Below are positions 3,107 through 37,973 of a DNA stretch of 64,000 nt, in pieces; the stretch's first letter is position 1, and each line of letters starts with the position of its first letter. Source of the stretch: a virus (lineage: Duplodnaviria; Caudoviricetes); the IMG/VR virus record IMGVR_UViG_3300036762_000188; one strand, given 5' to 3'. The notes beneath the pieces were generated by a model. The model saw only the letters and a list, made by a program, of their open reading frames with translations, searched no databases and was not told the DNA's origin. The translations under genes and the position numbers were made by a program.

Positions 3107-3140
3107 ACTTACCATCACCCAGCTGTTATAAGTATAATGT

Positions 3141-4475: not shown

Positions 4476-4552
4476 GCGCCCGTAGCTCAATAGGATAGAG
4501 CATCGGCCTTCTAAGCCGAGGGTTACAGGTTCGAACCCTGTCGGGCGCGCCA
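4476..4552 (+). tRNA. tRNA-Arg(TCT)
   Basis: Cloverleaf GCGCCCG/CGGGCGC; anticodon arm TCGGC-CTTCTAA-GCCGA; encoded CCA. Confidence 0.95.
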
Positions 4553-14538: not shown

Positions 14539-14618
14539 GGGGCTGTGGTGGAATTGGCAGACACGCTGGACTTAGAATCCAGTGCTTAGGCGTGAGGGTT
14601 CGACCCACGGCCCTACCA
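14539..14618 (+). tRNA. tRNA-Leu(TAG) with truncated T arm
   Basis: D loop GGAATTGGCAGACAC; anticodon arm CTGGA-CTTAGAA-TCCAG; variable arm; CCA; T arm about 3 nt short. Confidence 0.75.
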
Positions 14619-21642: not shown

Positions 21643-21730
21643 GGAAGGGTGGCCGAGTGGTTTAAGGCTCTAGTCTTGAAAATTAGCGTCCCGAAAGGGG
21701 CCCTGGGTTCGAATCCCAGCCCTTCCGCCA
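21643..21730 (+). tRNA. tRNA-Ser(TGA)
   Basis: GGAAGGG/CCCTTCC; CTAGT-CTTGAAA-ATTAG; long variable arm; GCCA. Confidence 0.93.
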
Positions 21731-21822
21731 GAAGTGGTTATGGATGGACGGTATTGAGACCGTCTACTAATAACTTACTATCCCGACGGCTCACTTCTAA
21801 CGGTAACGTCGGGTAAATATTC
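21731..21822 (+). repeat. Post-CCA structured element, copy 1
   Basis: AAGT-[hairpin]-ACTATCCCGACG..TCTAACGGTAA-CGTCGGGTA; 40 nt identical to 22619-22658. Confidence 0.75.
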
Positions 21823-21860
21823 TAATGTATACACTTTCAGTGTCTATATTTAAGGAGACT

Positions 21861-22250
21861 ATGATGAACGAATATCTAATAGCTGTAATGACTGCAGTAG
21901 CATTGATAGTAGGACTATTATCCTATATATTATTAGCACGTAAACGCGTAGATAAACGTTCTGACGAAATCGAAGGGTATGTAAGAAGAAGTAGAGAGCT
22001 ACGTGCTAAAAAGCTTAAAAGTCTAGAGTCAGATGCTGCACAAGACTCGACGATGGATATAGAGGACTTATACCCTCAGGTATCTACGTCGGACTTATGC
22101 GATAGCTCTAAGCACACGTGTAGTCCTGACGAGAATTCAGTTCTTAGGAATACAGTTTATTCTGATAGCTCTAGCTCAGACAGTTTTAGTAGTTCTAGCT
22201 CATGCAGTTCTAGCTCGTCTAGCTCGTCTAGCTCATGCAGTTACGATTAA
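21861..22250 (+). CDS. Membrane-anchored protein with Ser-rich tail
   Basis: N-terminal TM; C-terminal poly-Ser encoded by TCTAGCTC(G/A) repeats; AGGAG RBS. Confidence 0.65.
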   Translation: MMNEYLIAVMTAVALIVGLLSYILLARKRVDKRSDEIEGYVRRSRELRAKKLKSLESDAAQDSTMDIEDLYPQVSTSDLCDSSKHTCSPDENSVLRNTVYSDSSSSDSFSSSSSCSSSSSSSSSSCSYD

Positions 22251-22334
22251 GATAGTTAACATTATAGCTGCAATAGCGGTGTATACTGTAGTGGCAGTTG
22301 TATTATGCTACGTGGTGTACACTATAAGTATTGA

Positions 22335-22409
22335 ATCCGTTTCGTCCAGCGGTTAGGACACTACCCTTTCAAGGTGGTAACACGAGTTCGAATCTCGTAG
22401 CGGATACCA
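22335..22409 (+). tRNA. tRNA-Glu(TTC)
   Basis: ATCCGTT/AGCGGAT; CTACC-CTTTCAA-GGTGG; CCA. Confidence 0.9.
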
Positions 22410-22413
22410 ATTA

Positions 22414-22501
22414 GGAAGGTTGGCTGAGAGGATTAAGGCACTCCCCTGCTAAGGGAACGTCCCGAAAGGGACCGATGGTTCGAATCCATCACCTTCCGCC
22501 A
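22414..22501 (+). tRNA. tRNA-Ser(GCT)
   Basis: GGAAGGT/ACCTTCC; TCCC-CTGCTAA-GGGA; long variable arm; GCCA. Confidence 0.93.
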
Positions 22502-22577
22502 GAAGTAACCCTCCCACTGGGTGGAGGGTAACTATCCCCGTGGTTAAACATCTAACGGTAACACGGGGTAAATATTC
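22502..22577 (+). repeat. Post-CCA structured element, copy 2
   Basis: AAGT-[hairpin]-ACTATCCCCGTG..TCTAACGGTAA-CACGGGGTAAATATTC; compensatory stem changes relative to copy 1. Confidence 0.7.
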
Positions 22578-22593
22578 GGCTACGGCCTTACCA

Positions 22594-22658
22594 AAGTAAT
22601 AGTCTAAATGTAGGCTGATACTATCCCGACGGCTCACTTCTAACGGTAACGTCGGGTA
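22594..22658 (+). repeat. Post-CCA structured element, copy 3
   Basis: CCA-AAGT-[TAGTCTA/TAGGCTG hairpin]-ACTATCCCGACG...CGTCGGGTA. Confidence 0.75.
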
Positions 22659-22661
22659 CAA

Positions 22662-22737
22662 TGCGGGGTAGTTCAGAGGTTAGAATGCAGGACTCATAAT
22701 CCTGATGTCGCCGGTTCGAATCCGGCCCCCGCAACCA
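22662..22737 (+). tRNA. tRNA-Met(CAT) with initiator-like acceptor stem
   Basis: TGCGGGG/CCCCGCA; CAGGA-CTCATAA-TCCTG; ACCA. Confidence 0.9.
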
Positions 22738-22758
22738 GTTTTGCCGTGATACTTACGG

Positions 22759-22830
22759 GATTAATGTGTTAAGTTTGGTGACATAGCCGCTACCAAGGTG
22801 GCTATTAACGGTTCGACTCCGGTATTATAC
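22759..22830 (+). pseudogene. Degenerate tRNA-like remnant
   Basis: TAGCCGC-TACCAAG-GTGGCTA hairpin followed by CGGTTCGACTCCG T loop; no convincing acceptor stem. Confidence 0.35.
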
Positions 22831-22856
22831 TACGCGTAAGGAGTACCATCGGCTCT

Positions 22857-23811: not shown

Positions 23812-23832
23812 AGCCGCACTGCGGCTTTTTTT
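23812..23832 (+). terminator. Rho-independent terminator
   Basis: AGCCGCA-C-TGCGGCT-TTTTTT. Confidence 0.6.
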
Positions 23833-23847: not shown

Positions 23848-24525
23848 ATGAAAGGATGCAAGATTATAGATTCCCGTGTAGCTGAGGTAGGTAGTTTCGC
23901 TACTGAAGTATCCAATGATGACATACGTAACGAACCTATGTTCTTTAATTGTGACGTAGATTTTAGCTATAAGCACGGCGGTCCTATAACACGGTCGTTC
24001 CTGGATAATCTGCCAGCAGGATGGGACGGTGTGTTCGATAGTCGCGTGCATATGTTAATGAAAGGCTGGTACCCGGCTATACCAGGCTATCATCATGACG
24101 ACGTACCCCGCCCAGATATACCTGCAGGGCAACACTTCATTACAGCCGGTCAGCCGGACTACGATAATCCTACATATAAGTCTAATCATATCCTAGGCCT
24201 AGTGAACGCTGATGTAGCTCCTACTCACTTCGCCTTAGGTAGAGCTACCTTCTCAGAGATACCTGACGGCGAGCTGATATATCGTGCCTGGCACTTAGAG
24301 GTATTGGATAAGATTATGTCAGGTGAGTTGACTCCCTATAAGACTCCTGATAGAACCTTACTACAGTTTAACTGGCAGTCCTGGCATCAGGGTGTAGAGG
24401 CCGTAGGTCACGGCTGGCGCTGGTTCGGTAGAGTCAGTAAGGATACGGGCAGGCTTAGCAAGATAACTAATGAGATAAGGGTCAATTCCCAGGTGTATAT
24501 GAAATTCCCTATGGAAGGGTGGTAA
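23848..24525 (+). CDS. Putative 2OG-Fe(II) dioxygenase-fold protein
   Basis: IPGYHHD (HxD) ... WHQG (distal H) ... GWRWFGR (R); GGAGG RBS. Confidence 0.55.
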   Translation: MKGCKIIDSRVAEVGSFATEVSNDDIRNEPMFFNCDVDFSYKHGGPITRSFLDNLPAGWDGVFDSRVHMLMKGWYPAIPGYHHDDVPRPDIPAGQHFITAGQPDYDNPTYKSNHILGLVNADVAPTHFALGRATFSEIPDGELIYRAWHLEVLDKIMSGELTPYKTPDRTLLQFNWQSWHQGVEAVGHGWRWFGRVSKDTGRLSKITNEIRVNSQVYMKFPMEGW

Positions 24526-36108: not shown

Positions 36109-37137
36109 ATGCATACACTTAAACTTTTGAAGGAATCAGGCTTAGACGGTCTATACCGTCTGGGCATCAGGCCTGTTAAGAGAGACGGGCTTATACTCTT
36201 GAATTATAGTCAAGTGGAAAGTCCTAAGTTTCACCCCGTAGTAAATGAATGTCGTAGCCTACTCTTAACAGAGGACTTACAATTAGTAAGCCGCAGCTTC
36301 GACAGATTTTATAATCATAGTCAAGTAGACTCTTCAGAGGATATATCTGATTGTGATGTTTTTGAGAAGATGGATGGTTCTCTTCTGAATATGTACTACC
36401 ATAACGGATGGAAGTATAGATTAAGTGGATCCCTGGATCTTAACCATGGAGTATGGGATCCTACCGGTCTAGACAGTACTACATGGAAAGACTACGTCAA
36501 TAAATGTATGGCTGACGCGCCTCTGCATCTGGCTAATGATCGTGATTGCACTTATATATTTGAGATAGTCGGTAAGAGTAATAAGATAGTAGTGCAGTAC
36601 CCTGAAGCTGATTATAGGCTACTAGCTGTACGGCATAGAGACGGGCGTTATATGCCTATACCTGAGGGTTTTAAACGCCCGCGCAGTTATAAATTCAGTA
36701 CATTAACGGAATGTGTACAGGCTGCTAACTCATTACCTAACCTAGAAGAAGGCTTCGTTATATATAAAGACGGCCCGATTTTAAAGGTCAAAAGTGACGT
36801 CTATATAAAGAGTCATCATATGCGCTTCAATGATATAAGCGCTCGTAGGGTGATGGACATGGTTGTAGAAGGTGATTATGATGAGTACCTCTCGGTATTC
36901 GCAGAACATAAACCTATGTTCGAGCCTTTTATACAAGCTGTAGAGCGTATGAGGCTTGATATGATCAGGCTTAAAGCGGAGAGTGAAGGTTATACTACTC
37001 AGGAATTGAGTAGAATGTATTCTGGAGTAGAACTTTCCATGATATGGTGGGTTAGAAGTGATCGCTCTATATATGAGAATCTAAAAAGTTCAAAGCCTAA
37101 TGCGCGCATTCGTTTATTTAAACATTACATGGAGTAG
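36109..37137 (+). CDS. rnlA: RNA ligase 1 (T4 RnlA family)
   Basis: LNYSQ..ECRSL..SRSFDRFYN, FEKMDGS (motif I), TYIFE, NKIVV.Y, EEGFV, LKVKS. Confidence 0.88.
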   Translation: MHTLKLLKESGLDGLYRLGIRPVKRDGLILLNYSQVESPKFHPVVNECRSLLLTEDLQLVSRSFDRFYNHSQVDSSEDISDCDVFEKMDGSLLNMYYHNGWKYRLSGSLDLNHGVWDPTGLDSTTWKDYVNKCMADAPLHLANDRDCTYIFEIVGKSNKIVVQYPEADYRLLAVRHRDGRYMPIPEGFKRPRSYKFSTLTECVQAANSLPNLEEGFVIYKDGPILKVKSDVYIKSHHMRFNDISARRVMDMVVEGDYDEYLSVFAEHKPMFEPFIQAVERMRLDMIRLKAESEGYTTQELSRMYSGVELSMIWWVRSDRSIYENLKSSKPNARIRLFKHYME

Positions 37138-37139
37138 AT

Positions 37140-37973
37140 ATGATAACATTAACGGTAGGGATACCGGGTAGCGGTAAGAGCACTTGGGCTAAAAAACAAG
37201 ATGCAGTAGAAGTTAACAGGGATATGATACGTAAATCACTATTCTGTAATGGTGATACAGACGCCATGTTTGAGTATCGGTTCACTTCAGATAAAGAGGG
37301 TATAGTCACTGCCACCTCTGTAGCGGCAGTATCTAGTGCAGTATCTGTCGGTAGGGATGTGATAGTGTCGGATACTAATTTAGTAGCCTCGACTAGGGAT
37401 AGGTATAAACTGTTGGCTAAAAACCTGGGAGTAGATTATAAGGAAGTAGTCTTCCCTGACATCGATAAGGCGTTTAAACGTAACCTACAACGCTCTATCC
37501 CGGTACCTATGCAGGTGATGTTGAATATGTATAGGCTATTCCGCCAGTATGAAGGAAGGACACCTTATACACCTGGAGCAGATCCTTGTATCATCTGTGA
37601 TCTGGACGGTACTCTGTATGACATGAACGGTCGCAGTCCTTACGCTGACGATGTGTCAGGTGATTTAGTAAACGAGGTGATACTGAACTTACTTCGTAAG
37701 GTAGAATACCCTATCATCCTCATGTCTGGTCGTAAGGAATCGGCCCGGGCTAGCACCGAGGCTAAGCTGGCAGAGGATGGTGTAGAATATGAGCGACTCA
37801 TAATGCGTGCTACTAGTGATAATAGGCCTGATTATATAGTTAAGGAAGATCTTTTTGATACGCACCTGTCTGATAGGGATGTATGGTTTATCTTAGACGA
37901 CAGGGCTCAGGTAGTTAACATGTGGAGGGCTAAGGGGCTTACATGCTTTCAAGTCGCAGATGGATATTTCTGA
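37140..37973 (+). CDS. pseT: Polynucleotide 5'-kinase/3'-phosphatase
   Basis: GIPGSGKSTWA, NRD.IR, SDTNL; DLDGT, SGR, DNRPD..VK, LDDR.QVV.MWR..GL.CFQVA.G.F. Confidence 0.92.
   Translation: MITLTVGIPGSGKSTWAKKQDAVEVNRDMIRKSLFCNGDTDAMFEYRFTSDKEGIVTATSVAAVSSAVSVGRDVIVSDTNLVASTRDRYKLLAKNLGVDYKEVVFPDIDKAFKRNLQRSIPVPMQVMLNMYRLFRQYEGRTPYTPGADPCIICDLDGTLYDMNGRSPYADDVSGDLVNEVILNLLRKVEYPIILMSGRKESARASTEAKLAEDGVEYERLIMRATSDNRPDYIVKEDLFDTHLSDRDVWFILDDRAQVVNMWRAKGLTCFQVADGYF

Follow-up and report, generated by a model that had tools for sequence, protein, structure and literature searches.

An apparently undescribed two-hairpin RNA element at tRNA 3' ends in the tRNA cluster of a phage

The window analysed here, a stretch of 64,000 nt, is part of a complete phage genome of 148,929 bp with terminal repeats, and it holds all 14 phage tRNA genes as well as a permuted tmRNA. 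Among these genes we find a two-hairpin element of 65-85 bases, present in three plus-strand copies that all have the orientation of the tRNAs (Table 1). Copies 1 and 2 begin at the base right after the encoded CCA of tRNA-Ser(TGA) and of its paralogue tRNA-Ser(GCT), from which it differs at numerous stem positions. Copy 3 is preceded by TTACCA (22588-22593), and its GGGTA ends 3 nt from tRNA-Met. This arrangement, its coordinates and the consensus of the element are those of the original prediction, which sequence and alignment bear out: ARAGORN places the ends of the two serine tRNAs at 21730 and 22501, and copy 3 stops at 22658, before a tRNA-Met that starts at 22662. Only 3 of the 15 tRNA-type gene ends carry the element. 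The trailers of the remaining phage tRNAs are plain and for the most part AU-rich, and the two-hairpin element is thus a special feature of a few tRNA ends and not their default.

Table 1. Positions in the window of the element copies and of the features around them
Feature	Position	Strand	Details	Evidence
tRNA-Ser(TGA)	21643..21730	+	encoded CCA	ARAGORN, Rfam tRNA
Copy 1	21731-21815	+	G, AAGU 21732-21735; hairpin I up to ACU 21777-21779; linker AU; UA last	
Copy 1, hairpin II	21782-21788 / 21807-21813	+	stem II; invariant part of loop 21796-21806	sequence
AAUAUUC flank	21816..21822 (copy 1)	+	3' flank common to copies 1 and 2	alignment
CTATAAGTA	22322..22330	+	variant of phage promoter motif, 13 nt upstream of tRNA-Glu	motif scan
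tRNA-Ser(GCT)	22414..22501	+	encoded CCA	ARAGORN, Rfam tRNA, alignment
Copy 2	22502-22570	+	hairpin I 22503-22533; stem II 22536-22542 / 22562-22568, three compensatory pairs	
Copy 2, invariant part of loop	22551-22561	+		sequence
Truncated tRNA 3' end (probable)	22574..22593	+	half T-loop, acceptor strand and CCA; holds TTACCA	alignment
Copy 3	22594-22658	+	AAGU 22594-22597; hairpin I up to ACU 22620-22622; stem II 22625-22631 / 22650-22656	
tRNA-Met	22662..22737	+	3 nt past end of copy 3	ARAGORN, Rfam tRNA
Terminator-like hairpin and T run	23812..23826	+	intrinsic type, 3' of tRNA-Gly	

The copies appear to belong to the transcripts of the neighbouring tRNAs. The promoter-like motif TTATAAGTA is found in 13 exact copies between positions 355 and 53708 of the window, on the plus strand every time; copies or variants lie, e.g., at 3126, 4460, 19543 and 22322. 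Three copies or variants of it lie 13-16 nt upstream of tRNA-type genes, namely tRNA-Glu, a tRNA-like gene at 3140 and tRNA-Arg at 4476, which suggests that certain tRNA transcripts may begin near the mature 5' end. The CTATAAGTA before tRNA-Glu is the likely start of the transcript with copies 2 and 3, and the terminator-like hairpin behind tRNA-Gly is the likely end of the tRNA operon. Since the element copies lie between promoter-motif copies and this terminator, they should be co-transcribed with the tRNAs and form part of their precursors. Two further features of the cluster are worth recording. The spacer of 119 nt between tRNA-Met and tRNA-Pro (22738-22856) contains CGGTTCGACTCCG, which resembles a T-arm, and a hairpin of 9 bp (AUAGCCGCU / GGUGGCUAU) whose loop has 5 nt; neither ARAGORN nor Rfam calls a tRNA in it, and it may be a degenerate or non-canonical one. 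Between copy 1 and the RBS and ATG of ORF 21862-22250, whose product is small, membrane-anchored and Ser-rich, lies another hairpin, ATACACT-TTC-AGTGTCTAT (21826-21850), which may act as a 5' stabiliser of the mRNA remaining once the AU-rich site is cut.

All three copies follow the same plan: the CCA is followed by (G)AAGU, a variable hairpin (hairpin I), ACU-AU, a 7-bp stem CCCNNNG/CNNNGGG (stem II) with the loop G-N6/7-UCUAACGGUAA, and a final UA. The 11-mer TCTAACGGTAA occurs exactly three times in the window, at 21796, 22551 and 22639, and a covariance model of hairpin II retrieves only these three copies from the whole 148,929-bp genome (E<=10), copy 1 scoring 77 bits with model R1. Behind tRNA-Leu or tRNA-Tyr the model reveals no diverged further copies at E<=10, and alignments of their trailers are not significant. 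The AAUAUUC flank of copies 1 and 2 offers a candidate cleavage site: RNase E prefers RN↓WUU, and the AU↓AUU within 21816..21822 fits this preference. A protein-coding reading of the element is unfit, as the two hairpin II copies contained in a 70-aa minus-strand ORF are 88 nt apart and therefore out of frame with each other.

The TTACCA in front of copy 3 had been regarded as an orphan, a description that has to be revised. The segment 22574-22593 matches the 3' end (14598-14618) of the phage tRNA-Leu(TAG) (14538-14618) at 17 of 21 positions (P=0.0017; about 0.0125 when tested as the best of 14 tRNAs) and is probably a truncated tRNA-Leu-like 3' end. We also tried it as a fragment of a tRNA-Ser, without success (P about 0.9). 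Its break falls at a TTC common to the 3' flank of copy 2 and to the T-loop, i.e. at a microhomology. With this relic taken as a tRNA 3' end, all three copies follow the end of a tRNA, one of them a dead fragment.

Both hairpins bear signs of selection. Hairpin I folds at -17.3, -14.1 and -8.7 kcal/mol in copies 1, 2 and 3 (z of -4.4, -3.9 and -4.2 relative to shuffles), and copy 1 as a whole at -30.8 kcal/mol (z of -3.8). Its closing pairs AGU/ACU are fixed in all three copies and its interior is variable, as is its length, which is about 19 bp in copy 1 and 10-11 pairs in copies 2 and 3. The stem of hairpin II has 7 bp, and all 21 of its 21 cells are paired. Three of the seven pairs are altered on both sides in copy 2, by the adjacent double changes G-C to C-G, A-U to G-C and C-G to U-A, so that the covariation originally proposed for this stem holds, with 7/7 pairs kept through the three double changes. 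When the partner strand is slid by 1-3 columns as a control, pairing in stem II drops to 29-43% and there are no double changes. A shuffle control gave 23/500; it is weak, and the covariation statistics are thin, because hairpin II exists in just two distinct versions. Within hairpin II the base CCC/GGG is fixed, the rest of the stem covaries and the 11-nt loop segment UCUAACGGUAA is invariant.

In the trailers of the two serine tRNAs (copies 1 and 2), GGGTAAATATTC, ACTATCCC and the 11-nt loop segment are identical, and the conservation of this trailer core is at least that of the tRNAs themselves. Despite the double changes in its stem II and a rewritten hairpin I, copy 2 has kept the 11 loop bases, ACUAUCCC and GGGUAAAUAUUC unaltered. 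Copies 1 and 3 share a segment of exactly 40 identical nt, TACTATCCC...GGGTA, which comprises hairpin II and its flanks and has sharp borders, whereas the adjoining hairpins I of the same two copies cannot be aligned. This contrast suggests gene conversion or the insertion of a discrete DNA unit. The original prediction, right in that hairpin I pairs in every copy, went too far in calling its sequences wholly unrelated: those of copies 1 and 2 share 11 of 13 positions between TGGATGGACGGTA (21741-21753) and TGGGTGGAGGGTA (22518-22530) (P=0.002). The match occupies opposite arms, 5' in copy 1 but 3' in copy 2, an arrangement suggestive of arm swapping or template switching in the evolution of the palindrome.

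Several observations bear on the strand and on possible partners. Hairpin I has three G.U pairs, on the plus strand only, and the plus-strand fold is stabler than the minus-strand fold (-30.8 vs -25.1 in copy 1, -17.8 vs -14.4 in copy 3); together these point to a folded transcript in the orientation of the tRNAs. Pairing between the loop and the tRNA-trailer junction, which had been proposed for copies 1 and 3, extends over 7 bp in copy 1, is reduced to AAGU/ACUU (4 bp) in copy 3 and is absent from copy 2, so there is no conserved pseudoknot. Neither hairpin I nor the loop pairs beyond chance with other sequences or tRNAs of the phage; the best case was tRNA-Lys at -11.7 kcal/mol (0.02, uncorrected for the 15 targets). 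Two other ideas were rejected: rRNA mimicry or complementarity, as alignment to the E. coli rrn operon is no better than that of shuffles, and a sigma-70 promoter within the element, as there is merely a weak 9/12 match in copy 1, unlike the TTATAAGTA motif of this phage. Overall, the element is real, looks selected and is apparently an undescribed structured RNA.

Searches for known families and for relatives agree with this. Rfam 15 matched none of its families to the element, neither at gathering thresholds nor at E<=10 on 2.6 kb, and with slices of 139-171 nt and the laxest filters it returned just two chance matches of 9-11 bits (E<=10). The novelty of the element relative to Rfam is thereby upheld, and so is its poor fit to HDV, twister, pistol and hammerhead ribozymes: the HDV-type models hit no copy at the gathering threshold or at E<=10, the hammerhead, twister, twister-sister, pistol, hatchet and hairpin models gave no match at E<=10 on the 139-171-nt slices, and inspection found no CUGANGA...GAAA core. 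Homologues beside tRNAs in other phages did not turn up in pattern scans of IMG/VR or by BLAST of GenBank phages. More generally, in IMG/VR, in JGI metagenomes and among 185,579 prokaryote genomes, strict-pattern scans met only chance matches in coding sequence, with no stem and no tRNA close by, and BLAST with either the core or the full element found nothing among GenBank phages, plasmids or E. coli genomes. One external occurrence is the same phage in an independent assembly, Logan contig SRR11729898_78927, base-identical over 5.4 kb and ending inside hairpin II of copy 1, which suggests that the repeat breaks short-read assembly graphs.

The phage itself lacks close relatives. For its AAA ATPase, encoded just upstream, a search of 5.8 billion proteins yielded, identical copies aside, nothing beyond 40% identity, and the closest kin of its helicase are in Salmonella phage Arash (37%), Pseudanabaena phage PA-SR01 (35%) and an IMG/VR contig (34%). 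In Arash, the element is missing from the tRNA-Ser trailer. Just past the tRNA operon, the 225-aa product of ORF 23848-24525 is 66-73% identical to RB69ORF132c-type proteins from phages of the T-even coliphage, Klebsiella and Aeromonas groups. Such identity, in a phage otherwise devoid of close kin, suggests recent gene exchange, and the matches hint at a gammaproteobacterial host. The ORFs adjoining the element have no Pfam or PHROG nuclease match, and the phage genome encodes neither an RNase III domain nor a CCA-adding enzyme domain. It does encode an Rnl1 (RNA ligase 1, 36109-37137), directly followed by an AAA_33 kinase-domain ORF of 283 aa (about 37146-37526; G000:C1:100267-100647), which is a Pnkp-like partner and would form with Rnl1 a tRNA repair pair of the T4 type.

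We tentatively favour, at a little short of an even chance, the explanation that the element is an RNA module within polycistronic tRNA precursors, from which nucleases excise a small stable RNA whose invariant loop is read by a specific partner. The nucleases that set the boundaries of the element would recognise its neighbours and not the element itself. At the 5' end, a tRNA-guided cut at or just past the CCA, by recognition of the RNase BN/Z or RNase P type, would be followed by RNase T/PH trimming. The 3' end of copies 1 and 2 may be produced by RNase E at the conserved UAAAU↓AUUC, and that of copy 3 may be defined by the RNase P site of tRNA-Met. The released RNA would have about 70-90 nt, and its two hairpins would shield it from exonucleases. 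An 11-nt loop that stays invariant in three paralogous copies implies a specific partner; this could be a protein, of the host or of the phage, or a further RNA. It would read the loop and the junction, and either direct the cut at the CCA or be bound by the released RNA. As for their origin, the three copies may derive from duplicated tRNA-plus-trailer units, two belonging to the Ser paralogues and one to a Leu-like gene that is now truncated. A stable small RNA from tRNA processing was among the original proposals and is the one that fits the anatomy best, given the tRNA strand, the G.U pairs, the conserved loop and the nuclease-type boundaries. Yet with a hairpin placed 2 nt past the CCA, 3' trimming by exonucleases, the usual route, should be impeded and not aided. 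Moreover, copy 3 is perfectly kept behind a dead tRNA fragment, so that maturation of the upstream tRNA cannot be the sole role of the element.

The most serious competitor, unlikely as we judge it, places the history of the element at the level of DNA: it would be what is left of an element, selfish or duplicative, that targets the 3' ends of tRNA genes or moves along with them, and its hairpins would be inherited and not reflect a selected RNA function. That each copy abuts a tRNA 3' end, one of them a truncated relic joined at a TTC microhomology, that the identity of copies 1 and 3 stops so sharply, and that so few tRNA ends are occupied would all be natural outcomes of such a process. The relic and the 40-nt identity thus lend something to the miniature element that had been suggested, but the rest of its portrait is lacking. 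The complete 148,929-bp genome has no match to GIY-YIG (PF01541) and no significant HNH domain, the copies have neither terminal inverted repeats nor target duplications in their sequence, and the want of a single copy in the databases searched is unexpected of something that spreads. Besides, the compensatory changes in stem II and the invariance of the loop show that selection has acted on a folded single strand, and the G.U pairs favour the transcribed one. If the hairpins are instead plain processing signals, i.e. RNase III sites or exonuclease blocks with no specific partner, their sequence conservation would reflect recent duplication only. RNase III stems are a common device of phage operons, and hairpin I of copy 1, with its 19 bp or so, resembles one. 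Yet RNase III stems span roughly two helical turns, and the other copies fall short of this with just 10-11 pairs. Nor does recent duplication explain why copy 2, otherwise diverged, has kept its 11 loop bases, ACUAUCCC and GGGUAAAUAUUC, which one would not expect in the absence of a sequence-specific constraint. We therefore consider plain hairpins improbable.

Might the element itself cut the precursor? It could belong to a new class of small self-cleaving ribozymes, releasing the tRNA 3' end by a cut at CCA↓G, theta-like in function but different in fold, with hairpin I as a variable peripheral stem and the junction and the hairpin II loop as the core. The exact position at the tRNA 3' end, the G at +1 of copies 1 and 2 and the resemblance to the context of theta ribozymes (PMC10879173) speak for it, as does a constant junction and loop alongside a freely varying stem, and a hairpin touching the CCA calls for an endonucleolytic cut. 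The Rnl1 and Pnkp-like proteins could heal a 2',3'-cyclic phosphate, but they are generic tRNA-repair equipment and lend weak support. A new ribozyme nevertheless obtains no backing from Rfam, from threading or from the unconserved pseudoknot. HDV-like ribozymes were described by a nested double pseudoknot, with P1 from +1, P3/L3 immediately 5' of the P1 3' strand, P1.1, P2 and P4, and this fold fails in all copies: copy 1 has a 7-bp P1 (GAAGUGG/UCACUUC) but no P3 preceding its 3' strand, copies 2 and 3 have no P1 of at least 5 bp, and in the descriptor scan there is no P4/P2 arrangement in which to place a catalytic C at the first position of J4/2. The loop-junction pairing, the sole candidate for a tertiary contact, is not conserved either. 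As the tRNAs here encode their CCA, cleavage would leave a blocked A76, and among theta-associated tRNAs 95.5% lack an encoded CCA and only 4.5% have one (PMC10879173). Copy 3 has an A, not a G, at +1, behind a dead tRNA, and the prior for self-cleavage in any new structured RNA is low; we hold this reading to be improbable as well. We would be scarcely more confident in the wider claim that the element provides a new route to tRNA 3' ends, be it by a self-cleaving fold so far unseen or as an RNA handle that recruits a nuclease to CCA↓G; with both variants the released RNA could also be a specific binder. Least probable of all, to our mind, is a put-like cis-acting antitermination or anti-pausing RNA: as a nascent transcript, the two stems would attach to RNA polymerase during elongation and take it through the structured tRNA operon into downstream genes. 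At about 65-85 nt and with a pair of adjoining stem-loops, the element resembles HK022 putL and putR (PMC9378689), both putative transcription units contain one or more copies, at about 180-360 nt downstream from copies of the promoter motif, and copy 1 is followed by a hairpin and an ORF. But put has conserved and needed residues in both stems where stem I of the element varies freely, its sequence is unlike that of the element, tandem copies such as 2 and 3 are not expected, and the exact abutment to CCA ends is left unexplained.

The clusters of tRNAs in phages are usually annotated as tRNAs separated by junk spacers. Here, the spacer that contains the element bears the marks of selection for a folded RNA: its stems covary, its loop is invariant and its junction is fixed. 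Its position is exactly at tRNA 3' ends, and yet it is unlike the one known class of ribozymes found there. Should the element carry out the cut at the CCA or direct it, phages would have a second, unrelated solution to the maturation of tRNA 3' ends. If, as the processed RNA module would have it, a small RNA with a specific partner is released, this would be a new phage regulatory RNA. The weak point is that the evidence, so far as one can see, comes from three copies in a single orphan phage lineage.

How does the element compare with known systems? Theta ribozymes are minimal HDV-like ribozymes found next to phage tRNA genes, at the tRNA 3' ends, mostly in gut phages of Bacteroidota (PMC10879173). 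The element resembles them in its phage tRNA context, its start at the tRNA 3' end, its compact size and the G+1 near the tRNA 3' end, which copies 1 and 2 have by position and copy 3 replaces by an A. It differs in having neither the nested double pseudoknot nor a match to Rfam HDV-type models, and in being attached to tRNAs with an encoded CCA. In the put RNA of HK022, residues of both stems are conserved and needed for binding to RNA polymerase (PMC9378689). Put and the element are alike in their ~70 nt, two adjacent stem-loops, multiple paralogous copies and sense orientation in early-type operons (PMC9378689), but stem I of the element is unconserved, the sequences are dissimilar and the element is sited at tRNA ends and not simply close to promoters. 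For the DNA-level alternative, the nearest likeness is that of cassettes with a GIY-YIG nuclease. Phage T4 SegB is the published analogue of selfish cassettes at tRNA ends with miniature GIY-YIG nucleases, whereas the genome studied here lacks the nuclease gene and other genomes lack copies of the element. The species 1 and 2 RNAs of T4, punctuated by RNase III, RNase E and RNase P, have no homology of sequence or structure with the element, and it differs from them by its three paralogous copies and its invariant 11-nt loop. Yet both are structured non-tRNA RNAs inside a tRNA operon, both have tRNA ends and AU-rich sites as their boundaries, and both are likely by-products of tRNA processing. 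The element is best filed as an apparently undescribed member of the kin of structured spacer RNAs in phage tRNA operons.
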